Notes under the pieces: generated by a model | What the model was told of the DNA's origin: nothing | Database searches by the model: none | The model's input: only the letters and a program-made list of their open reading frames with translations | NCBI GenBank assembly: GCA_945865725.1 | Contig: CAMBEO010000004.1 | Coordinates: forward strand, 2,016 to 66,015 | Origin: Thermoflexus hugenholtzii JAD2 | Lineage (GTDB): Bacteria; Chloroflexota; UBA11872; UBA12225 | Length of the DNA: 64,000 nt | Direction: 5' to 3' | Shown: positions 27,433 to 62,363 of the stretch, in pieces | Layout of the letters: every line of letters starts with the position of its first letter | Numbering within the stretch: position 1 is the stretch's first letter | Translations under genes and position numbers: made by a program

Positions 27433-27568
27433 GCTCTTATCCAGAGAGGTGGAGGGACACGGCCCGACGAAACCCGGCAACCACCGCGTGCGCCATGCGC
27501 CGCGACAGGTGCCAACTCCGGCCGTCGCACCGCGGGCGCATGCCCGTGGATCGACGGCGAGATGAGCA
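27433..27568 (+). promoter_or_regulatory. SAM-I (S-box) riboswitch aptamer
   Basis: The near-consensus core is 'CTCTTATCCAGAGAGGTGGAGGGACACGGCCCGACGAAACCCGGCAACC' ... 'AGGTGCCAACTCC' ... P1 3' strand 'GATGAG', which pairs with CTTATC. It lies in the 320-nt gap upstream of the thrC-like gene. Confidence 0.85.
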
Positions 27569-27600
27569 TGCAGAGATCGATCTGCACGTCTGTACGCGTC

Positions 27601-27628
27601 CCCCGGCTCCTCGGCCGGGGTTTTTGTT
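27601..27628 (+). terminator. intrinsic terminator (riboswitch expression platform)
   Basis: CCCCGGC-TCCTCG-GCCGGGG stem-loop followed by TTTTTGTT, 33 nt after the aptamer and ~100 nt before the ATG at 27725. Confidence 0.75.
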
Positions 27629-27724
27629 CCCCCCCGGCCCCCATCTGGTGCGGCGCGGTCGATGCGGTCGCGAGGCGGCAGGCGGTTGGCCTGCCGGTCA
27701 CGACACCTAGGGGAGCATCTCCAC

Positions 27725-29017
27725 ATGGCAATCTCCGCCCCGGTGAGGCCGGGCGGCGCGGGTCACCCGAGTGGTAACGACGGGGGCACGCGCATCCTGG
27801 GCCTTGCCTGCCGCGAGTGCGGCGCCAAGTACCCGACCAGTCCGGTGCACGTGTGCGACCGCTGCTTCGGCCCGCTCGAGGTGCAGTACGACTATGACCT
27901 GATCGCCGAACGGGTCAGCCGCGAGTCGATCGCGCGCGGCCCCGACAACATCTGGCGCTACCGCGACTTGCTGCCGCTTGACGGCGAGGGGGACGTGGAC
28001 TGGCGCGTGGGGTGGACGCCCCTCGTGCGCGCGACCCGCCTCGGCAAGGCCTTGGGTCTTTCCAACCTCTGGATCAAGAACGACGCGGTCAACCCGACGT
28101 ACTCCTTCAAGGACCGGGTCGTCGCCGTCGCCGCCGCCAAGGCGCGCGAGTTCGGCTTCGACACCTTCGCGTGCGCCTCGACGGGAAATCTCGCGAGCGC
28201 CGTCGCCGCCGCCGGCGTCCGCCTCGGGTTGCGCACCTACGTCTTCCTGCCCGCCGACACCGAACCGGAGAAGTTCGTGAACGCGCAGGTCTACGGCGCG
28301 AACGTCATCGCCGTGAATGGCACCTACGACGACGTCAATCGCCTCTGTTCGGAACTCGCCGACCAGAAAGGGTGGGCGTTCTGCAACATCAACGTCCGCC
28401 CGTACTACTCCGAGGGGTCCAAGACCCTTGCGTTCGAGGTGGCGGAGCAACTCGGTTGGGAGGTGCCTGATCACGTCGTGGTGCCGATCGCCTCGGGTGC
28501 CCAGCTGGTGAAGATCACCAAGGGCTTCGGCGAGCTCGCGCAGATCGGTCTGACCTCCGGCAAGTTGCCGCGCGTCTCCGGCGCGCAGGCGTCGGGATGC
28601 AACCCCGTCGCTAACGCGTACTCCCGCGGGTGGGACGCCATCAAGCCGGTCCGCCGCCCGGACACGATCGCCAAGTCGCTGGCGATCGGAAACCCGGCCG
28701 ACGGCTACTACGTCCTCAAGATCGTCCGCGAGACCGGTGGCGCGATCGACGAGGCGACCGACGCCGAGATCACCCACGGCGTGCGCCTGCTCGCCGAGAC
28801 CGAGGGCATCTTCGCCGAAACGGCGGCCGGCGTAACTATCGCCGTGCTGAAGAAGCTGGCGGCCTCGGGCATCGTCAAGCGCGACGAACGCGTGGTGGCG
28901 TACGTCACCGGCAATGGCCTGAAGACCCCGCAGGCAGTCATTCCGCTGCTTGGCCAGGCGCCGGTGATCGCGCCGAACCTCGACGCCTTCGACGCGTACC
29001 TCACCGGGCAGGCATGA
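27725..29017 (+). CDS. threonine synthase-like PLP enzyme with N-terminal zinc ribbon (candidate MetM-type O-phosphohomoserine-dependent homocysteine synthase)
   Basis: ATG at 27725 follows AGGGGAG. Motifs are the 4-Cys ribbon 'CRECGAKY...CDRCFG', PLP-lysine 'PTYSFKDRVV' and 'ASTGNLA'. Placement behind a SAM riboswitch and in front of a sulfur-carrier gene argues against a plain ThrC role. Confidence 0.75.
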   Translation: MAISAPVRPGGAGHPSGNDGGTRILGLACRECGAKYPTSPVHVCDRCFGPLEVQYDYDLIAERVSRESIARGPDNIWRYRDLLPLDGEGDVDWRVGWTPLVRATRLGKALGLSNLWIKNDAVNPTYSFKDRVVAVAAAKAREFGFDTFACASTGNLASAVAAAGVRLGLRTYVFLPADTEPEKFVNAQVYGANVIAVNGTYDDVNRLCSELADQKGWAFCNINVRPYYSEGSKTLAFEVAEQLGWEVPDHVVVPIASGAQLVKITKGFGELAQIGLTSGKLPRVSGAQASGCNPVANAYSRGWDAIKPVRRPDTIAKSLAIGNPADGYYVLKIVRETGGAIDEATDAEITHGVRLLAETEGIFAETAAGVTIAVLKKLAASGIVKRDERVVAYVTGNGLKTPQAVIPLLGQAPVIAPNLDAFDAYLTGQA

Positions 29018-29061: not shown

Positions 29062-29340
29062 ATGGCCGCCAAGGTCCTCATCCCCACGCCCCTGCGCGCC
29101 CTCACGGGCGGCGCCTCGTCAGTGACGGTCGAGGCCGGCACCGTCGGGACGGTCCTTACCGCCCTCGAGACCGCGCACCCGGGCTTTCACGACCGCCTGT
29201 TCGACGACCGCGGCGACCTGCGCCGCTTCGTCAACATTTATGTGAACGGCGAGGACATCCGCTTCCTCGAGGGTCAGGACACGCCGGTCGCCGCTCGCGA
29301 CGAGGTGAGCATCGTCCCGGCCGTCGCCGGCGGCCGCTAG
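29062..29340 (+). CDS. CysO/MoaD/ThiS-type beta-grasp sulfur-carrier protein (MetO-like), C-terminus ...AVAGGR
   Basis: GGACAGGAG RBS upstream; 92 aa. 'KVLIPTPLRALTGG', 'FVNIYVNGEDIRF' and 'IVPAVAGG' closely parallel M. tuberculosis CysO as I recall it. One Arg follows the Gly-Gly. Confidence 0.8.
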   Translation: MAAKVLIPTPLRALTGGASSVTVEAGTVGTVLTALETAHPGFHDRLFDDRGDLRRFVNIYVNGEDIRFLEGQDTPVAARDEVSIVPAVAGGR

Positions 29341-29394: not shown

Positions 29395-29682
29395 CCAGGA
29401 ACCCGTCCGACATTTCGGCGATTCGGTGGGGAAGGTCGGCGACAAGGACCGAAGACCGGGCTGAGCCATGGTCCGCGGGCATCCTTGCCCGCCCTGCCGC
29501 CGCGGGACGATCGCCAAGGCCACGGTCGCCCGGACGGCTGCCAGATGGTGAGCCGGGAACGGCCTTCGTTGCCCCTCCCCGGCGGGCAGGGATGCCCGCG
29601 GACCTGCACCCCGGGGCGCACGCGCCCCTTAACCCGGGCGTACGCCCTGCGGTGTCCCTGCGATTGTCGGACAGCCTCCTAG
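29395..29682 (-). mobile_element. MITE-like element, copy 2 (reverse orientation, ~288 bp, composite)
   Basis: The left end 'CCAGGAACCCGTCCGACATTTCGGCGATTCGGTGGGGAAGGTCGGCGAC' and the right end 'GTCCCTGCGATTGTCGGACAGCCTCCTAG' align to the reverse complement of copies 1 and 3. The centre carries ~140 extra bp, including an inverted pair of a 24-nt hairpin motif. The terminal CTA (29679-29681) is the stop codon of the larE-like gene. Confidence 0.55.
29470..29604. repeat. inverted pair of 24-nt hairpin motif GGCGGGCA(A/G)GGATGCCCGCGGACC
   Basis: 29470-29493 (GGTCCGCGGGCATCCTTGCCCGCC) is the reverse complement, with one mismatch, of 29581-29604 (GGCGGGCAGGGATGCCCGCGGACC). Each unit is itself a 7-bp hairpin, GCGGGCA-NGGA-TGCCCGC. 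Confidence 0.75.
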
Positions 29683-30587
29683 CCTTGGATGACCGGCAGG
29701 AGGCGCCGCGCCGCGGGGATCGCCGGGATGGCGCCGAGGGCCTCGTTCATGCTGCCGCTTCGGTAGCCCTGCAGGTCGAGGGCGACGTGCTTGAAGCCGA
29801 TGGCCTTCAGGCGCGTGGTGATGGCCAGGTTCAGGCCGTCGGCGAAGAAGCGTGCCAGATCCGCGGCCGGCACCTCGATACGCGCCACGTCGCCGTGATG
29901 GCGCACCCGGACCTGCCGGAACCCCGCCTCGTAGAGGGCCATCTCGGCCTGGTCGATCTGCGCAAGCTTCTCCGCCGTGACGCGTTCGCCGTACGGAATG
30001 CGCGACGAGAGGCAGGCGAAGGCCGGCTTGTCCCACGTTTCGAGGCCGAGGTGGCGCGAGATCGCGCGAATCTCCGGCTTGCCGAGGCCCGCCTCAAGAA
30101 GCGGCGCGCGGGCGCCCATCGCCTTCGCGGCTTGCATCCCCGGGCGGAAGTCGCCGACGTCGTCTAGGTTGGCACCGTATGCGACCGTCGCGAGTTCACG
30201 CGCGGCCGCTAGCGGAAAGATGGTGGTGAACAGTTCCTGCTTGCAGTAGTAGCAGCGGTTGGCAGGATTGCTCGCGTAGTTCTCGTCGGCCAACTCGTGC
30301 GTCTCGACGAGGACAAGCTCGACCCCGATGTCGCGCGCCAGGCGCTTCGCCTGCTGCAACTCGTGGGCGGGGTAACTCTCGGACACTGCGGTGGCGGCGA
30401 CGGCGCGGTCACCCAACTCGTCGACGCAGACCTTGAGGAGGAGGGTGCTGTCGACGCCGGCCGAGAAGGCGACGAGTGTGCTGCCAAGGTCGCGACAGGC
30501 GGCGCGCAGGCGGTCGTAGGCGGCGCGTTCTCCGGCGGTGAGCGCGGGGGCGTCGGCAGGTGCGTCGATGGTCGTCGTCATGATCAT
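29679..30587 (-). CDS. LarE-family (TIGR00268-like) PP-loop ATP pyrophosphatase / sulfur transferase
   Basis: PP-loop 'VAFSAGVDS', 'NRCYYCK' and 'FACLSSRIPYGE'. Start taken at ATG 30587 ('MIMTTTID'); 30581 and 30626 are alternatives and no clear RBS is present. Confidence 0.7.
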   Translation of the reverse strand: MIMTTTIDAPADAPALTAGERAAYDRLRAACRDLGSTLVAFSAGVDSTLLLKVCVDELGDRAVAATAVSESYPAHELQQAKRLARDIGVELVLVETHELADENYASNPANRCYYCKQELFTTIFPLAAARELATVAYGANLDDVGDFRPGMQAAKAMGARAPLLEAGLGKPEIRAISRHLGLETWDKPAFACLSSRIPYGERVTAEKLAQIDQAEMALYEAGFRQVRVRHHGDVARIEVPAADLARFFADGLNLAITTRLKAIGFKHVALDLQGYRSGSMNEALGAIPAIPAARRLLPVIQG

Positions 30588-30734
30588 GGCAATCGTACCC
30601 GCGTGGTTCCGTGGCGGGCCTGCCATCTCGGCCGGCGGGACGTCGGCGATCCCAGTCCCCACCCGCTCCGGAGCGGTGGTTCACCCACCCTTATGGTGCG
30701 CCGTACGGCGATTCGTCCGTCACCCCCCCACCCC

Positions 30735-30758
30735 AGCGGGCAAGGATGCCCGCGGACC
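30735..30758 (+). repeat. third copy of the GCGGGCA-AGGA-TGCCCGC-GGACC hairpin motif
   Basis: AGCGGGCAAGGATGCCCGCGGACC is in the same orientation as 29581-29604. The neighbouring 'GGCGATTCG' also recurs in element copy 2. Confidence 0.7.
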
Positions 30759-30814
30759 AACCCCACCCCGCCTCGGCGCGTCACTGCTACGGTTCCCATC
30801 ACAAGGAGTCTTCC

Positions 30815-32362
30815 GTGCCAGATGCCCGCCACGATGCCCCGCCTGAACTCGATGAGCTGACCCGGCGCCTCGCCACCGTCCATGACTTGCGCGCCGCGAG
30901 CGCCGTCCTCGGGTGGGACCAGATGACCTACCTGCCCCCCAAGGGCGGCGCGGCCCGCGGGCGCCACCTCGCCACCCTTTCGCGCCTCGCTCACGAGCAG
31001 TTCACCGACGACCGCGTCGGCGCCCTCCTCGATGCCCTCCGCCCCTACGCGTCATCATTGCCCGCGGACCATCCCGCCACCGCCCTCGTCCGCGTCGCGC
31101 GCCACGACTGGGAGAAGGCGGTGCGCGTGCCCGGCGCCTTCATGGCCGCCTTTACCGAACACTGTTCCGCTTCGTACCAGGCGTGGGCGACCGCCCGGCC
31201 CGCCAACGACTTCGCGGGCATCGCCCCCGTCCTCGAACGCACCGTCGAGATGAGCCGCGAGTACGCCGCCTTCTTCCCGGCTACAGCACACGTCGCCGAC
31301 GCATTCGTCGACGAGGCCGAACCGGGCTTGGACGTCGCCGCCGTGCAGGCCCTGTTCGCCTCCTTGCGCGCCCGCCTCGTACCCCTGGTGCGCGAAGTCG
31401 TCGCCCGGCCCCGTCCGGACGATTCGTGCCTAACCCGGGGCTACCCCGAGGACGCGCAGTGGCGCTTCGGCGAGATGGTCGCCCGGCGCCTCGGCTACGA
31501 CTTCGACCGCGGCCGGCAGGATCGCGCGCCGCACCCGTTCACCACCAGTTTCTCGCGCGACGACGTGCGCATTACGACTCGCCTCTCGCACGACGACTTG
31601 CGCTTCGGCCTCTTCGCGACGATGCACGAGGCCGGCCACGGCATGTACGAACAAGGAATCGCGCCTGGTCTCGACGGCACCCTCCTCGGCAGTGGCGCCT
31701 CGTCGGGCATCCACGAGAGCCAGTCGCGGCTCTGGGAGAACGTGGTCGGGCGCAGTCGGGGCTTCTGGGAGTGGGGCTATCCGCTCTTGCGCGCCGAGTT
31801 CCCGGATCAGTTGGGCGACGTGACCCTCGATACCTTCCACCGCGCGGTCAACCGCGTCGAACCGTCACTGATCCGCGTCGAGGCGGACGAGTTGACGTAC
31901 AACCTGCACATCATGATGCGCTTCGACTTCGAACTCGCGTTGCTGGACGGGTCGATGCGCGTGGCCGACCTGCCCGAGGCGTGGCGCGCGCGCTTCATCT
32001 CCGACCTCGGCATCGCGCCCCCCGACGACCGCGACGGGTGCCTGCAGGACGTGCACTGGTTCGCCGGGCCGGTCGGGGGCGCCTTCCAGGGCTACACGAT
32101 CGGAAACGTCTTCGCGGCGCAAGCGTACGACCGTGCGATCCGCGACCTGCCGTCCATTCCTTCCGACGTCGCGCAGGGAGAGTTCGCCCCCCTGCTTGGG
32201 TGGATGCACGCGAACCTGCACGCCCTCGGCCGGATGTTCGACGTGAACGAGACGGTCGTGCGCGCGACCGGCGCGCCGCTCTCGATCGAACCGTACGTGG
32301 CGTACCTCGAGCGGAAATTCAGGGGCCTGTACGGGAGCGGATCAGACACCCCTCTCCCGTGA
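30815..32362 (+). CDS. M32 carboxypeptidase (carboxypeptidase Taq family)
   Basis: GTG at 30815 lies 6 nt after AAGGAG. Motifs are 'HEAGHGMYEQG' (HExxH), 'HESQSRLWEN' and 'IRVEADELTYNLHI'. The 515-aa length is typical. Confidence 0.85.
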   Translation: MPDARHDAPPELDELTRRLATVHDLRAASAVLGWDQMTYLPPKGGAARGRHLATLSRLAHEQFTDDRVGALLDALRPYASSLPADHPATALVRVARHDWEKAVRVPGAFMAAFTEHCSASYQAWATARPANDFAGIAPVLERTVEMSREYAAFFPATAHVADAFVDEAEPGLDVAAVQALFASLRARLVPLVREVVARPRPDDSCLTRGYPEDAQWRFGEMVARRLGYDFDRGRQDRAPHPFTTSFSRDDVRITTRLSHDDLRFGLFATMHEAGHGMYEQGIAPGLDGTLLGSGASSGIHESQSRLWENVVGRSRGFWEWGYPLLRAEFPDQLGDVTLDTFHRAVNRVEPSLIRVEADELTYNLHIMMRFDFELALLDGSMRVADLPEAWRARFISDLGIAPPDDRDGCLQDVHWFAGPVGGAFQGYTIGNVFAAQAYDRAIRDLPSIPSDVAQGEFAPLLGWMHANLHALGRMFDVNETVVRATGAPLSIEPYVAYLERKFRGLYGSGSDTPLP

Positions 32363-32455
32363 AACGGGGGAGGGGCAAGGGGTGGGGGTCTCGTCTCCCC
32401 GCGGGCTTCATACCCCCACCCTCAGTCCCTCCCCCGCTGAGGCGGGAGAGGGAAG
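32349..32455. repeat. palindromic repeats at a convergent junction (hairpin over the M32 stop, plus REP-like unit)
   Basis: 32349-32375 is CCCCTCTCCC-GTGAAAC-GGGGGAGGGG and includes the TGA at 32360-32362. 32414-32455 'CCCCCACCCTCAGTCCCTCCCCCGCTGAGGCGGGAGAGGGAAG' matches the units at 14010-14101. Confidence 0.75.
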
Positions 32456-32466
32456 CACAAACTCCC

Positions 32467-32892
32467 CTACCTCGACTCGTCGATGACCAACGGCACCACA
32501 TTCACTTGAGGCGGGACGATGCGGTACGCGTGGAACTCCGGGCCGGTGCCCCCTGGGACGTCCTGGCGCAGGCTGACCATCAGCTGGAGCGCCCCCGGCC
32601 AGAGTTCCGCGAAGCCGATGTCGGTGGCCGACGGGTACGCCACTGACACCGGGTGCGAGTGGTAGAAGCCGACGTCGTGACCTTCACGCTCGACCTCGAC
32701 GACTCGCATCAGGTCGCGCGAGTCGATCTCGAAGCGGTTGCGCGGCGTCGCGGCGGCGTTCCGCGTCGGCATGACCCGCACGACCTCACCCTCGCGCACC
32801 GCCACCACGCCGCACACCTCGTCGGGCGCGCCGGCGCGGGCGTGGGCCACGATCGCATCGATCTGCGACCGGGCGATCGACACGGTCTCCAT
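32467..32892 (-). CDS. JAMM/Mov34 (Mec+-like) metalloprotease
   Basis: 141 aa. The Glu in 'DEVCGVV' and the JAMM motif 'HSHPVSVAYPSATD' are present. Confidence 0.85.
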   Translation of the reverse strand: METVSIARSQIDAIVAHARAGAPDEVCGVVAVREGEVVRVMPTRNAAATPRNRFEIDSRDLMRVVEVEREGHDVGFYHSHPVSVAYPSATDIGFAELWPGALQLMVSLRQDVPGGTGPEFHAYRIVPPQVNVVPLVIDESR

Positions 32893-32940
32893 TGATAGCC
32901 GGGGTGCCCGCCGCGGTCAGACGGCGGGCACCATCTCCAC

Positions 32941-34056
32941 TTAGTGGACCGCGACGCGGTCGCGCTGATCGGCGAGTTCGGCCGGGATCGGTGCGCCGCA
33001 GAACTCGTGATAGTCGATTAGTTCGGTAATCGTCGGGTGGTCGCCACAGACCGGGCACCCCTTGTCGCGCCGCAACTTCAGGGTGCGGAACTCCATCGAT
33101 AGGGCGTCGAAGAGGAGAAGGCGCCCGACCAACGGATCGCCGATGCCCAAGATCTGCTTGATCGTCTCGAGGGCCTGCATCGACCCGACGATGCCCGGCA
33201 ACACGCCAAGCACGCCGGCCTCGGCACAACTCGGCACCGCACCGGGCGGCGGGGGCGCCGGGTAGAGGCAGCGGTAGCACCCGTGGCCCGGCTTGTAGAC
33301 CGTCACTTGCCCTTCGAACTGGTTGATGCCTCCGTCGATCAGGGTCTTGCCTAGAAGCACGGCGGCGTCGTTCGCCAGGTAGCGCGCGGGGAAGTTATCC
33401 ACGCCGTTGAGAACGTAGTCGTACTCGCGGAACAACTCGAACGCATTGCTCGAGTCGAGGATGGCGTTGTGCGCTTCGACCTTGACGTTCGGGTTGAGCA
33501 TCCCGATCGTCTGCTTGGCGCTCTCGACCTTGAGGTCGCCAACGCGGTCGGTGAAGTGCAACACCTGGCGTTGGAGGTTGGAATGGTCGACGACGTCGAA
33601 GTCGATGAGGCCAAGCGTACCGACCCCCGCCGCCGCGAGGTACAGGCCGGCAGGCGAACCAAGGCCCCCGGCGCCGATCAGGAGGACGCGGGCGTTCTTC
33701 AGCTTTCGCTGGCCGGACGGGCCGACGTCCTGCAGGAGGAAGTGGCGGCTGTAGCGCTTCACCTCCTCTATCGTGAACGCGCTGCCCCCGGCGACGGCCG
33801 GGATGATGCTGACGTCGTCGCCACCCTTCAGGGCGGTCGCCTCGCCGTCAAGCGCGGAGATCTCCTCGCTGTTGACGTACACGTTGATGAACTGGTGCAG
33901 CACGCCTTGCTCGTCGCGCAGGCGGTCGCGCATGCCGGGGAACCGCGCCTCGAGGTCCCCGAGGAGGCCCTTCACGTCGCCCGCCTCCGTCTCGACCCGC
34001 GACTGCCCGCCAGTCAAGGCACGGAAGGGTGTCGGGATATACACCTTTACGCTCAT
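32941..34056 (-). CDS. CysO-type sulfur carrier fused to MoeB/ThiF-type E1 adenylyltransferase
   Basis: aa 1-91 are 'MSVKVYIPTPFRALTGGQ...FINVYVNSEEI...IIPAVAGG', and the sequence then runs directly into 'SAFTIEEVKRYSRHFLL...LLIGAGGLGSP', 'CYRC' and 'CPVCG'. The Gly-Gly junction codon 91 is 33784-33786. There is no rhodanese domain; only ~280 aa follow the junction. Confidence 0.85.
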   Translation of the reverse strand: MSVKVYIPTPFRALTGGQSRVETEAGDVKGLLGDLEARFPGMRDRLRDEQGVLHQFINVYVNSEEISALDGEATALKGGDDVSIIPAVAGGSAFTIEEVKRYSRHFLLQDVGPSGQRKLKNARVLLIGAGGLGSPAGLYLAAAGVGTLGLIDFDVVDHSNLQRQVLHFTDRVGDLKVESAKQTIGMLNPNVKVEAHNAILDSSNAFELFREYDYVLNGVDNFPARYLANDAAVLLGKTLIDGGINQFEGQVTVYKPGHGCYRCLYPAPPPPGAVPSCAEAGVLGVLPGIVGSMQALETIKQILGIGDPLVGRLLLFDALSMEFRTLKLRRDKGCPVCGDHPTITELIDYHEFCGAPIPAELADQRDRVAVH

Positions 34057-34130
34057 CGTTCGTCACTCCTCCGGCCGGGACGCGCCCGCACCGCCAGTGC
34101 TCGCCCGTCCAGGGCAAGCGCCGCTCGTTC

Positions 34131-35078
34131 TCAGGGGAACTGCACGCTCAAGTACCGCTCGCCGGTGTCGCACAGGATCGTGACGACGGTCGCTTCCGGC
34201 GGCATCGTGGCCGCGAGGGCGACGGCGGCGTGAACGTTCGCGCCGGAACTCACGCCGACGAGGAGGCCTTCCTCGCGCGCCAGGCGTCCGGCCATCAACA
34301 ATGCGGCTTCGTCGGTGACCGCCACGACCTCGTCGACGACGTCCCGGTCGAAGATGCCGGGAACGAAGCTCGCGCCGATGCCCTGGATGGCGTGGGGCCG
34401 GAAGCGGCCGCCGGCAAGCACGGGCGATCGTGCGGGCTCGACGGCGACGATGCGTACCGCGGCGCCGAGGGCCTCGCGAAGCGCGTGACCCACCCCGGTG
34501 ACCGTCCCCCCGGTTCCAACGCCGGCCACGAAGGCATCCACCTTGCCCCCGGTGTCGGCAAGGATTTCCGGGCCGGTCGTCTGGCGGTGGATCTCCGGGT
34601 TCGCGGGATTGTCGAACTGAAGGGGCATGAAGGCGCCAAGCTCGCGGGAAAGTTCCTGGGCAAGCCACACGGCGCCGCCCATGCCCTCGATCGCCGGGGT
34701 GAGGCGGACCTCGGCTCCGAGGCGCTCGAGGAGGCGCCGGCGCTCGACGCTCATGTCCTCGGGCATGGTGAGGATGAGCGCGTAGCCCCGGATGGCACAG
34801 ACCACGGCGAGGCCGACGCCCGTGTTGCCGCTCGTCGGTTCGACGATGGTGGCGCCAGGGCCGATCACGCCGCGTCGCTCGGCGTCATCGACCATGGCCA
34901 GGGCGATGCGATCCTTGACGCTTCCGCCGGGGTTTCGGGCCTCGAACTTGCCGAGGACCGTCGCCCCTCCGGCAGTGACGACGCGGTTGAGGCGCACGAG
35001 CGGCGTGCGCCCGATCAAGTCAAGGGCCGACAGCGCGACCGGACGCGGTGCGGGTGCCTGCCTCGGTGTCGATCCCAT
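34131..35078 (-). CDS. cysteine synthase (CysK/CysM family, PLP-dependent)
   Basis: 'LIGRTPLVRLNRV', PLP lysine 'NPGGSVKDRIAL' and 'EPTSGNTGVGLA'. The context suggests CysM-like use of a carrier thiocarboxylate. Confidence 0.85.
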   Translation of the reverse strand: MGSTPRQAPAPRPVALSALDLIGRTPLVRLNRVVTAGGATVLGKFEARNPGGSVKDRIALAMVDDAERRGVIGPGATIVEPTSGNTGVGLAVVCAIRGYALILTMPEDMSVERRRLLERLGAEVRLTPAIEGMGGAVWLAQELSRELGAFMPLQFDNPANPEIHRQTTGPEILADTGGKVDAFVAGVGTGGTVTGVGHALREALGAAVRIVAVEPARSPVLAGGRFRPHAIQGIGASFVPGIFDRDVVDEVVAVTDEAALLMAGRLAREEGLLVGVSSGANVHAAVALAATMPPEATVVTILCDTGERYLSVQFP

Positions 35079-35088
35079 CCCGCACGTC

Positions 35089-35550
35089 CTAGATGTAGTA
35101 CCGCGCCGGCGCGGTCAGGTCTCGCTGGCGCGCGAGGAGGTCGGCCACGGTCGTCGCGTCGAGGATGCGGTGCACGGCCGCGCGCACTTCCTCCCACACT
35201 TCCTGTTGCACCCGGACCGCGGGAGCAACCGCGGCCCCGTCGATGGGCGCGCCTGCCCGCCCGCGCCCGTCAGGGACCGGGGGAAGGAAGGCGTCTCCCT
35301 CGACCGCCTCGATGATCGCACGCATGGTCACCCGTTCCGGTGGGCGGGCGAGGACGTGCCCTCCGCGCGGCCCGCGGGTGCTGTTCACGATCCCCGCGCG
35401 CCGCAGGAGGGTCAAGACCTGGTCAAGGAAGGTGTCCGAAATGCCTTGGCGGCGCGCGATTGCCTCGCTCGGCACCGGACCCTGCCCGATGCGTTCCGCG
35501 AGGTCAATGATCGCGCGGACCCCGTAGTCCGACCGTGCCGAGAGACGCAT
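35089..35550 (-). CDS. Rrf2 family transcriptional regulator
   Basis: 'MRLSARSDYGVRAIIDLA' and the wHTH 'SEAIARRQGISDTFLDQVLTLLRRAGIV'. It ends 10 nt upstream of the cysteine synthase start. Confidence 0.85.
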   Translation of the reverse strand: MRLSARSDYGVRAIIDLAERIGQGPVPSEAIARRQGISDTFLDQVLTLLRRAGIVNSTRGPRGGHVLARPPERVTMRAIIEAVEGDAFLPPVPDGRGRAGAPIDGAAVAPAVRVQQEVWEEVRAAVHRILDATTVADLLARQRDLTAPARYYI

Positions 35551-35778
35551 CGTTTATCGATGAAGTGACGTTCCCGCAAGCGTAACACGCGGGGGTGGGG
35601 CGGCCCCGTCGGCACGGCGGTGCCATGCGGGTAGGCGCCAGTCACCAGTGAACGCGCCGTCGCCCGGCCACATCCCGGTTCGGCCCGCGGCGAGGCACGG
35701 ACGAGGTCGCCATGGGCGACAATCGGCGCGGGCTGGCCACCGTGCCTTGCCACGCCGGGTCGCGAGGGAGGGGCAGCG

Positions 35779-37323
35779 ATGGGGGTCATCGACGCGGACG
35801 CCTGGATCGGCGTCGACATCGGCACGACGGGCACGCGGGCGGTCGTCTTCGACCGTTCGGGGCGCGTGCTCGAGGCTGTCTCGCGCACGTACCCGTTGCT
35901 CGTGCCGCGCCCAGGGTGGGCGGCGCAGGCGCCCGCGACGGTTCACGACGCGACGACCGAGGCCCTTGCCGAGGCCGCCGGATGGGCGCGCGACCACGGG
36001 CGGCACGTGCGCGCCGTCGGGCTGTCGGCCATCCTGCACTCCGTCCTGCCGGTCGATGCGCAGGGGAACGCCCTCGACGACGCGCTGATCTGGGCCGACA
36101 CGCGCGGTGACGACGAGGCGAAGGCGATCCGCGCGTCGCACGACCCGCATCGCCTCTACCTTCGCACCGGCGGGCCGGTGCACCCGATGTACTTGCCAGC
36201 CAAGGTGCGGTGGTGGCGGGCGAACCGGCCACAGACCTTCGCACGCGCCGCGCTCTTCGCTGGCATCAAGGACTACGTCCTCGGCAGGTGGACTGGCGCC
36301 GCCGTGACCGACCGGTCGACGGCGAGTGGTACCGGGCTCTTCGACCTGCAGGCCTTCGACTGGGCCGACGACCTCCTCGCCATCGCGGGGATCGACCGCG
36401 GACGCGTGCCATCGCTCGTGGAGCCGACGGACGTCCTTGACGCGCCTCGCTCGTGGCTGCGGTCCGTCGGCCTGCCGGATGACTGCCTTCTTGTCGCCGG
36501 GGCGGGCGACGGCGTGTTGCAGACCCTCGGCACGGGCGTGGCCTCGCCCGGGCAGTTCGTGGCGATGGTCGCGACGAGTGGCGCGGTACGGTCGGTCGTC
36601 GACCATCCCGTGACGGACGGGGCGCAGGCGCGCACGTGGTGCTACTACCTTGCGGAGGGGCGGTGGGTCGCCGGCGCGGCGATCAACAATGCCGGGATCG
36701 TCCTCGCCTGGTTGCGAGACCAGTGGGCGGCCATCGCGCGGGCGACCGGCGGGCGAGAACCGACGCTTGACGAGGTGACCGCATGGGCCGCCGAGGTCGG
36801 TCCAGGCGCGGGCGGGCTGCTCTTCCTGCCGTACCTCGCGGGTGAGCGGGCGCCCGGATGGAACGCCCGCGCGCGCGGCACGATCGTCGGCCTCTCGCTG
36901 GCGCACGACCATCGCCACCTTGCCCGTGCGACGCTCGAAGGCGTGGGCTACCGGATGCGGACCATCCTCGAACCGATGGAGGAGGTCGCGGGGAACGCGA
37001 ACGAGATCCGCATCGCGGGCGGGTTCATCCGGTCGCCGCTGTGGATGCAGGTGGTCGCCTCGGTCCTCGGGCGCGACCTGACCCTTGTCGACAGCCCCGA
37101 GGCGTCATCGCTCGGCGCGGCGATCCTGGCGATGCGTGCAACCGGTGACATCGAGTCGCTTGAGGCGGCGCCGCGCGTCGGGGCCATCGGGACCGTGACC
37201 CCCGACCCCCGGGCGCGCGCGGCCTACGACGACCTATACGCGCAGTACCGGGCGATCCACGCCGCGATGGCGCCGCATTGGGATGCCATCAGCGCCTGGC
37301 AGGCGGCCCGGGCGGAAGGATGA
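35779..37323 (+). CDS. FGGY family carbohydrate kinase (gluconokinase/xylulokinase-like)
   Basis: GGGAGGGG RBS upstream. 'WIGVDIGTTGTRAVVFD', 'IWADTR' and 'GGFIRSPLWMQ' are present. Confidence 0.85.
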   Translation: MGVIDADAWIGVDIGTTGTRAVVFDRSGRVLEAVSRTYPLLVPRPGWAAQAPATVHDATTEALAEAAGWARDHGRHVRAVGLSAILHSVLPVDAQGNALDDALIWADTRGDDEAKAIRASHDPHRLYLRTGGPVHPMYLPAKVRWWRANRPQTFARAALFAGIKDYVLGRWTGAAVTDRSTASGTGLFDLQAFDWADDLLAIAGIDRGRVPSLVEPTDVLDAPRSWLRSVGLPDDCLLVAGAGDGVLQTLGTGVASPGQFVAMVATSGAVRSVVDHPVTDGAQARTWCYYLAEGRWVAGAAINNAGIVLAWLRDQWAAIARATGGREPTLDEVTAWAAEVGPGAGGLLFLPYLAGERAPGWNARARGTIVGLSLAHDHRHLARATLEGVGYRMRTILEPMEEVAGNANEIRIAGGFIRSPLWMQVVASVLGRDLTLVDSPEASSLGAAILAMRATGDIESLEAAPRVGAIGTVTPDPRARAAYDDLYAQYRAIHAAMAPHWDAISAWQAARAEG

Positions 37324-37359: not shown

Positions 37360-38268
37360 TCACGCGTGGTCGTGGATTTCCCATGGTCGGATCAACCGCA
37401 GGGCGCTCACGATCGCGCTCGTCGCCGATGAGCGGTTGAGCGTGTAGAAGTGGATGCCGGGCGCGCCGTGGCGGATCAACTCGTCCGCCTGCAACGTCGT
37501 GTAGGCGACGGCGAGTTCCAGGACGGCTTCCGGGGCGCCCGCGCGCGCACGGATGTCGCTCATCAGGTGAACTGGAAAGGTCGCGCCAGACATCCTGGCG
37601 ATCCGCGGGATGCTTTCCGCGTTGATGGCCGGCATGAGGCCCGGGATGATCGGCACCTCGATCCCGCCGATGCGCGCCCGTTCGACGAAGCGGAAGTACA
37701 CCTCGTTGTCGTAGAACAGCTGCGTCACCAGGAACCGCGCGCCGGCCTCCACCTTCCGGTGCAGGTGCTCGATGTCGAGGTCAAGGTCCTGGCGACGGCC
37801 GGTGTTGCCCTCGTAGTGGCCTTCCGGGTAGCACGCCGCGCCGACCGAGAAGTCGTAGTGGCCGTGGATGAACTCGACGAGCTCGTTCGCGTAGGCGAAG
37901 CCATCAGCGGCCGGGGTGAATGACGCGTCGCCGCGGGGCGGGTCGCCTCGCAGGGCCATGATGTTCTCGACGCCGCGATCGCGCAGGGTGTCGAGGGTCT
38001 CGCGAACCTCCTCGCGCGACGCGCCGACGCACGTGAGGTGCGCCATGGCCTCGATGCCGAAGTCGCGCTTGATGCGTGCGACCACGTCGATCGTCAGGGC
38101 GCGCGTGCTTCCCCCGGCACCGTAGGTGACGGAGACGAACGCGGGGTTGAGCGGGCGCAACTTGAGGATCGTCTCGAGAAGCTGCTCCTGCTGCTCCGCG
38201 TTCTTCGGCGGGAAGAACTCGAAGGAGAAGGCCGGGAAGGTCGTCTGTAGCGTTTCGTGGATTTTCAT
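37360..38268 (-). CDS. metF: 5,10-methylenetetrahydrofolate reductase
   Basis: ATG at 38268 ('MKIHETL'). 'FSFEFFPPK', 'FVSVTYGAGGSTR' and 'THLTCVG' are present. Confidence 0.85.
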   Translation of the reverse strand: MKIHETLQTTFPAFSFEFFPPKNAEQQEQLLETILKLRPLNPAFVSVTYGAGGSTRALTIDVVARIKRDFGIEAMAHLTCVGASREEVRETLDTLRDRGVENIMALRGDPPRGDASFTPAADGFAYANELVEFIHGHYDFSVGAACYPEGHYEGNTGRRQDLDLDIEHLHRKVEAGARFLVTQLFYDNEVYFRFVERARIGGIEVPIIPGLMPAINAESIPRIARMSGATFPVHLMSDIRARAGAPEAVLELAVAYTTLQADELIRHGAPGIHFYTLNRSSATSAIVSALRLIRPWEIHDHA

Positions 38269-38393
38269 GCGCCCCCCAGGAACCCTTCCCAGCCGTGCGC
38301 GGCCCGCTTGCCCGTCCGCGCGATCTCGCCGTGGGCCGGGAGAGTACCGTGCCGCCCGGGCCAAGGCGGTGTCGTCGCCCCGCTCCCCGCCTA

Positions 38394-56056: not shown

Positions 56057-56132
<76 letters not shown>

Positions 56133-58076: not shown

Positions 58077-59000
58077 ATGGACGACTTCGAGTACGTGCGC
58101 CCCGGGTCCGTCGGCGAGGCCGTGGCGCTCCTGGCGGAGAAGCCCGGGCGCGCGCGCGCGATGGCCGGTGGCACCGACCTTCTTGTCCAGTTGAAGGTGG
58201 GGCGCCGCACGCTTGACCGCGTCGTGGACGTAAAGGGCATCGCCGAACTCAACGAGATCCACGTCGGGAGTGACGGGGGCATCACGATCGGCGCCGCCGT
58301 GCCGTGCCACCGCGTGTACGACCACCCGGCGATCGTGGCCGGGTTCCCCGGGATCGTCGACTCGGCGAGCATCGTCGGGGGCATCGCGATCCAGGGGCGC
58401 GCCACCCTTGGTGGCAACCTCTGCAACGGCGCGCCGTCGGGCGACTCGATCCCCTCGCTGGCCGTCGTCGGGGCGGTCGCGGTGATCGCTGGGCCTTCGG
58501 GTCGGCGCGAGTTCCCGGTATCCGAGTTCTGCACGGGGCCGGGCCAGACGGTCCTAGGCGCGGACGAGCTCCTCGTCGCGATCCGCCTTCCGGCACCGCC
58601 TCCCCGGAGCTTCGGCCACTACCTTCGCTTCATCCCCCGCAACGAGATGGACATCGCCGTCGCCGGCGCAGGCGCGTGGGTTGCCCTCGACGAGGCCGGG
58701 GTGGTCACCGCGGCGCGCGTCGTCCTCGCTTCGGTCGCGCCCACGCCGATCGAGGTGCCGGACGCGGCGACGGCGATCATTGGCACGCGCGGCGAGGCCA
58801 CCGCCCTCGAGGCCGCGAGCGAGGCGGCGAAGGCCGCGGCGCGCCCGATCACCGACATGCGGGGCACGCAGGCGCAGCGACGCCACCTGTCAGGCGTGCT
58901 CACGAAGCGCGCCCTCGCCGGCGCGATTGCCCGGGCACGGGGCGAACACGTTCCCGGGGCCCACGAAGCCCACCGCGTGCACGCAAGCGCCACCCACTGA
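58077..59000 (+). CDS. molybdenum hydroxylase FAD-binding (medium) subunit
   Basis: 'FEYVRPGSVGEAVALL...AMAGGTDLLVQLK' is a CO dehydrogenase flavoprotein-like FAD-binding domain. Confidence 0.85.
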   Translation: MDDFEYVRPGSVGEAVALLAEKPGRARAMAGGTDLLVQLKVGRRTLDRVVDVKGIAELNEIHVGSDGGITIGAAVPCHRVYDHPAIVAGFPGIVDSASIVGGIAIQGRATLGGNLCNGAPSGDSIPSLAVVGAVAVIAGPSGRREFPVSEFCTGPGQTVLGADELLVAIRLPAPPPRSFGHYLRFIPRNEMDIAVAGAGAWVALDEAGVVTAARVVLASVAPTPIEVPDAATAIIGTRGEATALEAASEAAKAAARPITDMRGTQAQRRHLSGVLTKRALAGAIARARGEHVPGAHEAHRVHASATH

Positions 59001-59659: not shown

Positions 59660-61993
59660 ATGACGACGACCGCAGACCGCCCCGCCACCAGTAGCCCGAC
59701 GCGCGTCATCTCGATCAATGACGGCGCGAACATCATCGTCTCGCATGGAGACTACGCCGTCATCGGGACGCGCCCGGTGCGCCACGACGGCGTGGACAAG
59801 GTCACGGGGCGCGCCGTGTATGGCGGCGACACGCGCCTCAACGGCCTCCTCTTCGGCAAGGTGCTCCGTAGCCCGCATGTCCATGCGCGCATCGTGAGCA
59901 TCGACACGTCGAAGGCCCGCGCGGTGCCCGGCGTGCACGCCATCGTGACGAACGCCGACCTGCCCACGGCCGAGGACCGCGAGGTCAACCTCGGCGAGGG
60001 CGGGGGCAACCTCAAGTACATGAGCGACAACGTCCTCGCGAGCGACCTGGTCCTCTACAAGGGGCATGCCATCGCCGCCGTGGCCGCGATCAACGTGCAC
60101 GTGGCGGAAGCCGCCTGCGCGCTGATCGAGGTCGAGTACGAGGTCCTCCCCGCGGTCCACGAGATCAAGGCCGCGATCGCGGAGGGGGCGCCGCTGGTCC
60201 ACCCGTCGCTCACCACGAAGTCGCTCGGCAAGGACACCGGCGTCCACTCCAACATCACGAACCACGCGCGCCTGCAGATCGGTGACCCCGACGCCGCGTT
60301 TGCCCGTGCCGACGTCATCGCCGAGGGCGAGTTCACGACGACGATGGTCCATCAGGGATACATCGAGCCGACCAACGCCACCGCCATGTGGTATGCGGAC
60401 GGCAAGGTCACGATCTGGACGTCGACCCAGGGATCGTTCGCGGCGCGGGACAGCACCGCGCAGATCCTCGGCCTGCCGGTCTCCCGCGTGAAGGCCGTCC
60501 CGCAGGAGATTGGCGGGGGCTTCGGGGGCAAGATCAACGTCTACCTCGAGCCGGTCGCGGCCCTCCTCTCGCGCGCGAGCGGACGGCCCGTCAAGCTCAT
60601 CATGACCCGGGCCGAGGTCTTCCAGGCCACCGGCCCCGCGCCAGGGTCGTACAGCAAGGTCAAGTTCGGCGCGACGAAGGACGGTCGCCTCGTCGCGGCC
60701 TCCGCCGAGATTTACATGGAATCGGGCGCGTACCCGGGATCAGACACCGGCGCGGCGATGCGTTGTCTGTACTCTCCGTACAAGATCGACGACATGCGCG
60801 TCGACGGCTACGACGTCCTGACGAACCGGCCGAAGACCGCGCCGTACCGCGCGCCCGGCGCGCCACAGGCGGCGTTCGCCTCGGAACAGGTGATCGACGA
60901 CCTCGCCCGGAAGCTCGGGATGGACCCGGTCGAGTTCCGCTTGCTGAACGCCGCGCACGAAGGCACGCGCCTCGTGAATGGCCCCCTCCACAAGAAGGTG
61001 GGCGGCATCGAGGTCCTCGAGCAGACGAAGGCGCACGCGCACTACCAGTCGGACCTTGGCACGCCGTCCCCCGGCACCAAGCGCGGGCGGGGCGTCGCGA
61101 TCGGCTACTGGTTCAACATCGGCCTCCCCTCGAGCGTCGCCATCAGCGTGAACGCTGACGGTTCGGTGACCCTGGTCGAAGGTTCGACCGACATCGGCGG
61201 TAGCCGGGCGTCGATCGCGATGCAGGCGGCCGAGATCCTTGGCGTCCGCGCCGAGGACGTCCGCCCGAGCGTCGTCGATACCGACTCCATCGGCTACACG
61301 GGCGTGACCGGCGGTAGCCGCACGACCTACGCGACCGGTCTCGCCGCGATCGAGGCGGCGCGCCACGTCATCGCCCAGATGACGGCCCGCGTGGCGAAGG
61401 TCTGGTCGGTCTCGCCCGATGAGGTGTCGCACGACCACGGCGCCTTCCGCGCCGGAACGCGGTCGATGTCCTTCAAGGACGCCGCCGGCCACCTCGACGA
61501 GACGGGCGGACCGATCACGGGGACCGCAAGCCTCGACCCGCAAGGGCACGGGGGCGCGTTCGCCACCGTCACCTGCGACGTCGAAATCGACGTGGAGACC
61601 GGCAAGACGCAAGTCCTGAAGTGGACGATCGTCCAGGACGCTGGCAAGGCGATCCACCCGAGCTACGTCGAGGGGCAGTTCCAGGGCGCCAGCGCGCAGG
61701 GGATCGGGTGGGCGTTGTCCGAGGAGTACTTCATGAACTCCAAGGGCGAGATGACCAACACGTCCCTCCTCGACTACCGCCTACCGACGGCCTTCGACGT
61801 GCCGATGATCAACACCGTCATCGTCGAGGTGCCGAACCCCGGCCACCCGTTCGGCGTGCGGGGGGTCGGCGAGGCGTCGATCGTCCCGCCGATGGCCGCG
61901 GTGGCGAACGCGATCCGTGACGCGATCGGCGTCCGGATGCATGCATTGCCGATGAACCCGGGCGCGATCCTCCACGCTCTCGGCACCATCTAG
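59660..61993 (+). CDS. molybdopterin-binding large subunit of xanthine dehydrogenase / aldehyde oxidoreductase family
   Basis: 777 aa. 'VDKVTGRAVYGGD', 'APYRAPGAPQ' and 'GVRGVGEASIVP' are present. The loop is not the CODH-type AYRCSFR/AYRGAGR. Confidence 0.9.
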   Translation: MTTTADRPATSSPTRVISINDGANIIVSHGDYAVIGTRPVRHDGVDKVTGRAVYGGDTRLNGLLFGKVLRSPHVHARIVSIDTSKARAVPGVHAIVTNADLPTAEDREVNLGEGGGNLKYMSDNVLASDLVLYKGHAIAAVAAINVHVAEAACALIEVEYEVLPAVHEIKAAIAEGAPLVHPSLTTKSLGKDTGVHSNITNHARLQIGDPDAAFARADVIAEGEFTTTMVHQGYIEPTNATAMWYADGKVTIWTSTQGSFAARDSTAQILGLPVSRVKAVPQEIGGGFGGKINVYLEPVAALLSRASGRPVKLIMTRAEVFQATGPAPGSYSKVKFGATKDGRLVAASAEIYMESGAYPGSDTGAAMRCLYSPYKIDDMRVDGYDVLTNRPKTAPYRAPGAPQAAFASEQVIDDLARKLGMDPVEFRLLNAAHEGTRLVNGPLHKKVGGIEVLEQTKAHAHYQSDLGTPSPGTKRGRGVAIGYWFNIGLPSSVAISVNADGSVTLVEGSTDIGGSRASIAMQAAEILGVRAEDVRPSVVDTDSIGYTGVTGGSRTTYATGLAAIEAARHVIAQMTARVAKVWSVSPDEVSHDHGAFRAGTRSMSFKDAAGHLDETGGPITGTASLDPQGHGGAFATVTCDVEIDVETGKTQVLKWTIVQDAGKAIHPSYVEGQFQGASAQGIGWALSEEYFMNSKGEMTNTSLLDYRLPTAFDVPMINTVIVEVPNPGHPFGVRGVGEASIVPPMAAVANAIRDAIGVRMHALPMNPGAILHALGTI

Positions 61994-62072
61994 TCGGGCC
62001 TGTCGGGACCCGCACCCCACTCCCGCGCAAGCGGTGGAGGGGTGCGGGATGCCCGCGCCCCGTGCAACTCCC

Positions 62073-62363
62073 ATGGCCACCGTCTTCATTCCGCCCGCGT
62101 TGCGGGACCTCACGAGCGGCGCCACGACCGTCTTGATCGACGCGCCGACAGTTCGCGCCCTCGTGGAGGAACTCGACCGGAAGTATCCCGGCGTGCGCGA
62201 CCGCTTGTGCGAGGGGGCGTACTTCCGTCCCGGCCAGACCGTTGCCGTCGATGACGTCGCGTTCACTAACCGGGTCGCCATGTACCAGGAGGTCGGGCCC
62301 GACTCCGAGGTGCATTTCATCGCGGCGATCGCTGGTGGGGCGGCCGGCGCCTCCCGTCACTGA
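62073..62363 (+). CDS. CysO/MoaD/ThiS-type beta-grasp protein, Gly-Gly followed by 7-aa tail (..AIAGGAAGASRH)
   Basis: 'MATVFIPPALRDLTSGATTV...' is paralogous to the two other carriers, and 'HFIAAIAGG' corresponds to their 'IVPAVAGG'. Alternative starts are ATG 62049 (6 nt after GGTGGAGGGG) and GTG 62034. Confidence 0.65.
   Translation: MATVFIPPALRDLTSGATTVLIDAPTVRALVEELDRKYPGVRDRLCEGAYFRPGQTVAVDDVAFTNRVAMYQEVGPDSEVHFIAAIAGGAAGASRH

Follow-up and report, generated by a model that had tools for sequence, protein, structure and literature searches.

Background

Activating enzymes (E1) adenylate the free carboxylate of the C-terminal glycine of a sulfur-carrier protein. In Mycobacterium tuberculosis such a system is formed by CysO, CysM, Mec+ and MoeZ. 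A cluster of the same kind, in which a CysO-like carrier, an E1 and a JAMM peptidase are encoded together with a cysteine synthase, is found in Thermoflexus hugenholtzii JAD2 (Chloroflexota) on a stretch of 64,000 nucleotides (GCA_945865725.1, contig CAMBEO010000004.1, positions 2,016 to 66,015 of the forward strand), hereafter the window. Unlike in M. tuberculosis, carrier and E1 are here one polypeptide of 371 aa, the E1 is without the rhodanese domain of MoeZ, and the synthase is of the CysK type rather than the O-phosphoserine-using CysM, CysM-type enzymes being seen only in NC10 relatives of the locus. The 371-aa product is read here, with a probability of roughly 70%, as a precursor polyprotein in which a CysO-like carrier has its own MoeB-type E1 as a C-terminal extension and is released by the JAMM peptidase.

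Carriers made with residues beyond the terminal Gly-Gly (GG) have been described before. In the HcyS/HcyD/HcyF system of Wolinella the carrier has such post-GG residues and a cluster-encoded JAMM enzyme removes them. Likewise, in the thioquinolobactin (QbsE/QbsD/QbsC) and chuangxinmycin (CxnE/CxnF) clusters the post-GG residues are removed by the JAMM of the cluster before adenylation; QbsD acts on QbsE in this way, and CxnF has been proposed for the same task on CxnE (PMC5925218). The extensions of the Qbs, Cxn and Hcy carriers are of 1-10 residues and have no known function, whereas the extension in Thermoflexus would be a functional-type enzyme of 280 aa. In Streptomyces a homocysteine route is made up of MetM, MetO, Mec and MoeZ, and Mec matures MetO (Hasebe 2024, as cited in bioRxiv 10.1101/2024.10.14.618325). 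The likeness to the window lies in a ThrC-like enzyme beside a carrier in need of JAMM maturation, the corresponding pair of the window lying 3.6 kb from the fusion; the difference is that the window shows a single E1, which is joined to a second carrier and is without rhodanese.

Linear fusions are also known. MoaX, a MoaD-MoaE fusion of M. tuberculosis, is cut between Gly82 and Ser83, and the cut is needed for function (PMC4326299). HvJAMM1 of Haloferax cleaves a linear SAMP1-MoaE fusion in vivo (PMC4443979). These proteins resemble the Thermoflexus fusion in that a carrier is joined via GG to a pathway partner, the cut here being predicted between Gly91 and Ser92, but their partner is the sulfur-accepting synthase subunit and not the activating E1. 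The deubiquitinases acting on ubiquitin precursors are mostly cysteine proteases, not JAMM enzymes. The precursors themselves (polyubiquitin, ubiquitin-ribosomal protein fusions) are linear and are cut by a peptidase after GG (review PMC11354881); their fusion partner and biology differ from those described here. Ubiquitin-like (Ubl)-ThiF fusions of delta/epsilon-proteobacteria and Firmicutes, described by Iyer et al. in 2006, have an N-terminal beta-grasp on a ThiF-type E1, but that domain is 'distinct from ThiS', is found in thiamine operons that encode ThiS separately, and was predicted to act other than as a carrier (PMC1779556). By this description they are set apart from the Thermoflexus protein, with its canonical CysO-type domain, invariant GG and JAMM linkage. 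Operons in which a carrier stands with an E1-rhodanese, a JAB peptidase and a cysteine synthase are described in the same study, one of them from Chloroflexus (PMC1779556).

No description of a CysO-type carrier fused via GG to an E1 was found in the literature searched, which did not take in the 2009 E1-superfamily survey of Burroughs et al. This agrees with the initial annotation of the locus, in which the arrangement was held to be without earlier biochemical characterisation. The elements and the processing logic are established already and only the fusion partner is new. If the precursor reading is true, the protein would provide a bacterial example from nature of a ubiquitin-like protein that is synthesised as a linear fusion and processed by a JAMM enzyme, with its own activating enzyme as the partner, closer to eukaryotic ubiquitin-precursor logic than the short-tailed precursors known so far.

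Organisation of the locus

The genes and domains under discussion are as follows.

35089..35550, minus strand: Rrf2-family regulator, CymR-like, 153 aa (Pfam Rrf2, E 2.2e-32)
34131..35078, minus strand: CysK-type cysteine synthase, a pyridoxal phosphate (PLP) enzyme, 315 aa (PALP, E 9e-75)
32941..34056, minus strand: open reading frame (ORF) of the carrier::E1 fusion, 371 aa (ThiS and ThiF Pfam matches)
33784..34056, minus strand: carrier domain of the fusion, codons 1-91, CysO-like beta-grasp ending IIPAVAGG (PF02597, 3dwg_C)
33784..33789, minus strand: codons of Gly90-Gly91, predicted site of cleavage (after Gly91, before Ser92) and activation (sequence read)
32941..33783, minus strand: E1 domain of the fusion, codons 92-371 and stop, MoeB/ThiF-type, with the tail TITELIDYHEFCG (PF00899, 1jw9_B)
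32467..32892, minus strand: JAMM/MPN+ zinc metallopeptidase, Mec/desampylase-like, 141 aa (Pfam Prok-JAB, E 1.4e-18)

The four ORFs lie where the initial annotation had placed them on the minus strand. The operon-like spacing that it described is borne out, with intergenic gaps between Rrf2, cysteine synthase, fusion and JAMM genes of 10, 74 and 48 nt, and the Pfam matches agree with its naming of the Rrf2 and synthase genes upstream of the fusion and of a JAMM metalloprotease as the next gene. The codon-position GC of the fusion ORF (0.68/0.41/0.88) is in line with that of real genes of the window. By the relatives of the fusion, a high-GC (about 70%) member of the Chloroflexota is the most likely source of the window.

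The carrier domain and the Gly-Gly junction

The N-terminal part of the fusion combines a beta-grasp profile match, ThiS PF02597 on aa 5-91 (E 2.7e-12), with a C-terminal GG that is internal as encoded. CysO of M. tuberculosis (3dwg_C) aligned with aa 1-91 from end to end (E 6.9e-19, PDB sequences), and a MoaD structure (2m19) matched the domain far more weakly (E 5e-9). A complete CysO-type domain ending IIPAVAGG had been proposed for these residues, with Gly90-Gly91 exactly at the boundary with the E1. Both proposals hold: codons 90 (ggg, 33789..33787), 91 (ggc, 33786..33784) and 92 (agc) follow one another with no stop and no frame change, and the E1 match starts directly after GG. The protein could be an artefact, a lost stop or frameshift in the assembly having merged two genes, and split versions do exist in some relatives. 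This explanation is rejected as having next to no chance of being correct, the same continuous frame being kept in many independent assemblies from several phyla.

In an alignment of 168 fused homologues GG is kept at the junction in all 168 and Pro86 in 167. Positions 92-93, directly after GG, are the most variable of the junction region, and the distance from GG to the invariant Arg101 varies between 8 and 31 aa. Free carriers of 90-94 aa are 43-57% identical to the fused carrier domain and have the same PAVAGG motif at the tail; among the matches listed, 55 stop exactly at PAVAGG and about 30 have 1-11 aa beyond it. The search with the 91-aa carrier domain alone, from which these come, lists 93 matches, the top few of which are probably fusion fragments on short contigs, and it gives no clean fused-to-free ratio.

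An AlphaFold2 model of the fusion monomer has two confident domains, with a mean predicted local distance difference test score (pLDDT) of 87.6 and a predicted template modelling score (pTM) of 0.73. Residues 1-87 are confident, and pLDDT values under 50 are confined to residues 88-92, to residues 277-279 and to the C-terminus. The low values at 88-92 would fit an exposed, flexible tail at the junction.

Judged from the encoded protein, a mature carrier with a free glycine carboxylate would need proteolysis of the fusion product. The same requirement for a cut after GG had been stated in the initial annotation; it is biochemically sound, and the invariant GG, the variable two positions after it and the variable linker length all accord with it.

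The E1 domain

The initial annotation had the frame continuing without interruption into a MoeB/ThiF-type E1 with no room for a rhodanese domain. Profile searches return this two-domain layout: ThiF PF00899 matches aa 102-336 (E 5.6e-78, Pfam), after which 35 aa remain before the ORF ends, and Pfam detects no rhodanese domain in the fusion, which is in this respect not a MoeZ/MOCS3/Uba4-type protein. Escherichia coli MoeB (1jw9_B) aligned through its residues 6-248 with fusion aa 96-338 (E 5e-59, PDB sequences). Since aa 96 corresponds to MoeB residue 6, the E1 part begins at about MoeB residue 2, directly after GG. The glycine loop, the catalytic arginine and aspartate, two CxxC zinc motifs and Cys277 of an E1 are all present. 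In an alignment of 62 homologues R101, R104, G128-G133 (GAGGLG), D152, D154, N160, R163, Q164, K176, D220, C260, C263, C277, D348 and C353 are invariant, and C334 and C337 are kept in at least 90% of the sequences. The protein ends in a conserved motif, TITELIDYHEFCG, at aa 339-371 (32941..33050), of which D348 and C353 are invariant. Acidobacterial relatives have, after this motif, a segment leading into a rhodanese domain.

Scores against MoeB-type NCBIfam models reach 400 bits, but every equivalog-level MoeB model is below its cut-off, and the match to the MoeZ model is limited to positions 4-275 of 392. These high scores, together with the name 'MoeB' given by the source databases and a molybdenum hydroxylase with a third carrier-like ORF at 58-62 kb of the window, could be taken to mean that the protein is a MoaD::MoeB pair for the molybdenum cofactor, with no dedicated part in supplying sulfur for cysteine or methionine. 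An E1 with more than one carrier is known from M. tuberculosis, where MoeZR acts on CysO as well as on MoaD (PMC3227635). Set against this are the equivalog scores, the far better fit of the carrier to CysO than to the MoaD structure, and the conserved neighbours, which are Rrf2, cysteine synthase, JAMM and MetM/MetO, with no MoaE, MoaA or MoaC. A molybdenum cofactor role is thus considered unlikely, and it need not exclude the precursor reading because one E1 can serve several carriers.

PADLOC E1-E2 models gave weak matches to the protein (up to 65 bits) along with a JAB match, and desampylase is the best name available for the JAMM neighbour. A ubiquitin-like conjugation or anti-phage system of the Cap2/Cap3, Bil or sampylation kind, in place of sulfur transfer, might be read from these matches. 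However, the PADLOC E1-E2 matches cover only 80-180 residues of the E1 (Rossmann) part in models of 426-711 positions, and no E2 (UBC-like) domain or gene is present. With matches this partial and no E2, conjugation or defence is very improbable, and the MoeB-type scores, the metabolic neighbours, the sulfur amino acid context and a nearby S-adenosylmethionine (SAM) riboswitch further oppose it.

The JAMM peptidase

The JAMM protein has an intact motif, E25 and H78-S-H80-PVSVAYP-S89-AT-D92, corresponding to E...HxHx7Sx2D. Its best named NCBIfam match is desampylase (87.6 bits, below cut-off), and it is alignable with Pyrococcus furiosus JAMM1 (5lda_A). The gene lies directly downstream of the fusion in all nine Chloroflexota loci in which the contig continues beyond it. 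Of 27 fused loci having at least 3 kb on both flanks, 22 have a JAMM gene no more than 5 kb away.

From this linkage and from the precedents above, the JAMM enzyme is predicted to cleave after the GG of its carrier. A cut after GG by another cellular protease, or by autoproteolysis, is a rather unlikely alternative. The mycobacterial protease that cleaves MoaX is still unidentified (PMC4326299), two fused loci have no JAMM gene nearby, and an M32 peptidase gene stands beside the JAMM gene in five of the nine Chloroflexota loci. On the other side, JAMM enzymes are the documented post-GG peptidases of this carrier family, the JAMM gene is tightly linked, a carboxypeptidase cannot make an internal cut, and no autoproteolytic motif is evident. 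The initial annotation had spoken of a self-processing polyprotein; nothing was found to support this, and the processing that the locus points to is in trans, by the JAMM enzyme. Its further proposals, an enforced 1:1 stoichiometry of carrier and E1 and a dual role for the JAMM enzyme, are plausible.

The fusion could also serve as a clean, genetically encoded substrate for probing JAMM recognition in bacteria.

Distribution and origin of the fusion

The best 120 database relatives of the fusion are 61-92% identical to it and 303-557 aa long, and 119 of them have both Pfam domains. Their source names are 'MoeB', 'molybdopterin-synthase adenylyltransferase MoeB' or 'adenylyltransferase/sulfurtransferase'. 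If the precursor reading is true, this is a widespread annotation to correct, such proteins now being named simply 'MoeB'. Within contigs representing one genome per species, full-length fusions occur in Chloroflexota, NC10/Methylomirabilota, Acidobacteriota, Eisenbacteria, Armatimonadota and one metagenome-assembled genome (MAG) of Clostridia. The closest match (93%) is in a MAG labelled Thermoflexus sp., and Chloroflexota MAGs from lakes have it too. The arrangement is not rare and forms a conserved family in at least five phyla. Among the best 150 E1 representatives of a library clustered to 50% identity there are about 13 such fusions, and a few of the fusions have a rhodanese domain as well. 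These 13 are 44-60% identical to the Thermoflexus protein; the junction is readable in 11, with GG in 10 and no GG in one, and nine of the 10 that keep GG have the motif [PS][AS]xAGG.

The surroundings of the fusion can be grouped by lineage. In Chloroflexota (L001-L009) the order is that of the window: Rrf2, CysK-type synthase, fusion, JAMM, in part an M32 gene, LarE-like gene, free carrier and ThrC-like gene. In NC10 the order is Rrf2, CysK-type synthase, fusion, in part a free carrier, a second synthase and JAMM, with a ThrC-like gene and a carrier further on. This second enzyme belongs with CysM of M. tuberculosis (305 bits to 3dwg_A, C-terminal tail included), and in L014, L016 and L038 fusion, CysM-type synthase and JAMM come with no free carrier gene between them. 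In some NC10 lineages the E1 is unfused and stands with Rrf2 and JAMM, and the free carriers end in GGR, GGLPTV or GGVSPDYS... In Acidobacteria the set is synthase, JAMM, carrier and E1-rhodanese, fused in L046, L047 and L057 and split elsewhere; carrier and E1 are separate genes in L066 and L070-L072, and elsewhere in this phylum the two overlap out of frame. With these lineages, Chloroflexota, NC10 and Acidobacteriota join the apparent users of protein thiocarboxylates for the synthesis of cysteine and methionine.

Two close relatives within Bryobacteraceae differ by a single in-frame stop. In L048 (5704..7413) the carrier ends GGR and is followed by an in-frame stop and then the E1-rhodanese, and in L046 (4500..5966) carrier, E1 and rhodanese are one protein. 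The pair captures the fusion event directly. By comparison of these sequences, the fusion most likely arose when the stop codon separating neighbouring carrier and E1 genes was lost. Such a loss would be tolerated because carriers in this lineage were already made as JAMM-matured precursors, and since the free carriers there already have post-GG extensions, the fusion can be seen as an extreme case of a known precursor strategy.

Proposed processing and sulfur transfer

The fusion is real, conserved and coherent, and the following mechanism is strongly suggested by the sequences. The neighbouring JAMM enzyme would cut between Gly91 and Ser92 to give a 9.67-kDa carrier with a free ...AVAGG-COOH terminus and a 30.17-kDa E1, the latter starting where a stand-alone MoeB starts. 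An E1 needs a free C-terminal glycine, so the encoded protein could not use its own carrier domain before this cut. The released E1 would then, with ATP, adenylate Gly91 of the carrier, and the acyl-adenylate would be converted to a thiocarboxylate by sulfide or by a persulfide supplied in trans. Delivery in trans is proposed because the E1 has no rhodanese; a persulfide is also delivered in trans for E. coli MoeB and ThiF. The thiocarboxylate would pass its sulfur to PLP enzymes making cysteine, homocysteine or both. Two further carrier-like proteins of the window, ending GG-R and GG-AAGASRH, are probably trimmed by this JAMM enzyme as well, and, by analogy with Mec+, it may hydrolyse adducts of carrier and amino acid.

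Several points weigh against this mechanism. The sequences show the domain architecture, the intact catalytic motifs, the conservation of GG and gene context, and the split and fused pairs among relatives; cleavage in any member of the family, the identity of the protease, the source of the sulfur and the enzyme that receives it are inferred. No rhodanese was found anywhere in the 64-kb window by tblastn with that of an acidobacterial relative, a point that bears on the sulfur donor. The JAMM linkage is not absolute, since neither L012 nor L041 has a JAMM gene in flanks of about 6 kb on either side. A free carrier gene lies beside the fused one in many NC10 loci, and the adjacent synthase of the window is of the CysK type, which is not known to use thiocarboxylates. 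Finally, a diverged protein of 320 aa that is 46% identical to the fusion (P0329) has a fused beta-grasp domain without GG (...NISLLSDDLSVLPELNPQEMLRYSRH). The loss of GG in P0329 means that non-cleavable derivatives exist and suggests that the carrier domain became a permanent E1 appendage in some lineages.

On these grounds the beta-grasp domain might never be cleaved and might instead act in docking, as an adaptor or as an auto-inhibitory domain of the E1, with the free carriers as the only true carriers. Free carrier genes coexist with the fusion in the window (29062..29340) as well as in NC10, and P0329 and the neighbouring CysK-type enzyme, which is not a known CysO user, fit the same idea. 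Iyer et al. argued in this way for their other Ubl-ThiF fusion (PMC1779556), and parallels exist in the ubiquitin-fold domain of eukaryotic E1s and in Campylobacter-type Ubl-ThiF fusions. Conservation at the junction argues otherwise, since GG is without exception in the 168 fused homologues and the full PAVAGG tail is kept while the next residues vary freely. Moreover, close relatives differ in having the split or the fused form, a pattern that speaks for the equivalence of the two; some NC10 loci have a CysM-type synthase and JAMM with no free carrier nearby, and the junction is predicted to be flexible. An uncleaved domain is therefore held to be improbable, though it is given some weight.

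A further possibility, doubtful but deserving of mention, is that the fusion is a regulatory zymogen and no neutral merger of genes, carrier and E1 both being inactive until the JAMM cut, or that in some lineages an uncleaved domain is a permanent accessory of the E1. The arginine helix at the N-terminus of the E1 begins about 10 residues after GG. Were the protein a zymogen, the JAMM enzyme would be a proteolytic on-switch for the whole of the cell's thiocarboxylate-dependent sulfur assimilation, into cysteine, homocysteine and possibly the molybdenum cofactor; were the domain an accessory, it would be a bacterial parallel to the ubiquitin-fold domain of eukaryotic E1s.

The cysteine synthase and the Rrf2 regulator

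The gene upstream of the fusion had been annotated as a cysteine synthase in line with the M. tuberculosis pathway. A cysteine synthase it is, but not of the CysM type. It scores 407 bits against TIGR01139 cysK (cut-off 351, NCBIfam), and its best PDB matches are CysK enzymes, including M. tuberculosis CysK1 at 327 bits; M. tuberculosis CysM is absent from its 60 best PDB matches. A CysM-type O-phosphoserine sulfhydrylase beside the fusion is accordingly rejected for the window. No second cysteine synthase, second E1 or second JAMM gene was found in the 64 kb by tblastn. With an adjacent synthase of the CysK type, the acceptor of the carrier's sulfur in the window is uncertain, and the question is raised whether a protein thiocarboxylate can be a substrate of such an enzyme. 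The CysK gene may be present for regulation or for ordinary sulfide-dependent synthesis. A cysteine synthase is directly upstream of the fusion in Chloroflexota loci and in most NC10 loci.

The best NCBIfam equivalog of the Rrf2 protein is CymR (97.5 bits, below cut-off). CymR is a cluster-less regulator, and in Bacillus it acts jointly with CysK. The Rrf2 protein of the window and its Chloroflexota orthologues contain no cysteine, and hence lack the three cysteine ligands of the iron-sulfur (Fe-S) type (IscR/NsrR/RirA), whereas NC10 orthologues have C-x8-C-x5-C. With a protein devoid of cysteine and one with an Fe-S motif in the same operon position, the same operon seems to be under two sensing modes.

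Surrounding genes and signals

Further features of the window are listed below.

27434..27568, plus strand: SAM riboswitch (Rfam RF00162, 62.7 bits against a gathering score of 44.4, E 3.5e-12)
~27600..27628, plus strand: GC hairpin and T-run after the riboswitch, terminator-like (sequence read)
27662..29017, plus strand: threonine-synthase-like PLP enzyme, probable MetM (PALP, E 1.1e-70, and a NinF-like match)
29062..29340, plus strand: free sulfur carrier ending VPAVAGG-R, MetO-like (ThiS, E 5.9e-17)
29679..30662, minus strand: LarE-family PP-loop ATPase (TIGR00268, 325 bits against a cut-off of 150)
30611..32362, plus strand: M32 (Taq-type) carboxypeptidase, convergent with the JAMM gene
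32365..32436, no strand assigned: imperfect 25-nt inverted repeat between the convergent JAMM and M32 carboxypeptidase genes
32903..32932, minus strand: perfect 11-bp inverted repeat (hairpin) in the 48-nt spacer between fusion and JAMM genes
37360..38364, minus strand: methylenetetrahydrofolate reductase (methionine pathway), 1.8 kb from the Rrf2 gene
56061..56132, minus strand: tRNA gene
58077..59000: flavin adenine dinucleotide (FAD) subunit of a molybdenum hydroxylase
59660..61993: large subunit of the molybdenum hydroxylase, which lies just upstream of the next feature
62034..62363, plus strand: third, diverged carrier-like ORF ending AIAGG-AAGASRH (tblastn with the fused carrier, E 1.1e-7 over 42 aa)

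The threonine-synthase homologue stands beside a carrier with the SAM riboswitch directly upstream, an arrangement that would correspond to a MetM/MetO pair. Riboswitch, ThrC-like gene and carrier together imply a SAM-regulated homocysteine operon of the MetM/MetO type, usually annotated 'threonine synthase', and the ThrC-like enzyme is a probable thiocarboxylate-dependent homocysteine synthase, MetM. It has an N-terminal zinc-ribbon-like segment, and its true start may be the ATG at 27725. The MetO-like carrier scores 66.4 bits against the SAMP1 model, above cut-off, and is 55% identical to the fused carrier domain; as encoded, it would need the removal of one residue after GG. The third carrier-like ORF has no Pfam or NCBIfam match, and its assignment as a carrier is thus tentative. 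With one E1 and one JAMM enzyme found in the window, the two may plausibly serve all three carriers.

The LarE-like gene lies between the JAMM operon and the MetM/MetO pair, and has the same place in Chloroflexota L001-L009. No LarB or LarC was seen, so the LarE-like protein might use a protein thiocarboxylate rather than take part in nickel-pincer cofactor synthesis. The M32 carboxypeptidase, found at this position in the five Chloroflexota loci mentioned above, could trim post-GG tails of free carriers, or its position could be coincidental. Its predicted 5' end overlaps the start of the LarE-like gene, so one of the two start codons is probably miscalled.

A scan of 32200..35900 for promoters and terminators called none, detecting only hairpins without T-runs. 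The arms of the 11-bp repeat are GGTGCCCGCCG and CGGCGGGCACC, with a loop of 8 nt and no T-run following. This hairpin could tune the expression level of JAMM relative to the fusion, and the 25-nt inverted repeat is the likely end of the operon.

NIL domains are linked to methionine and sulfur metabolism. In NC10 a NIL-domain ORF (L039, 8712..9089) lies in the conserved stretch of 1.2-1.5 kb between the JAMM and MetM-like genes, and it is the only recognisable ORF in the JAMM-MetM gap of L039.

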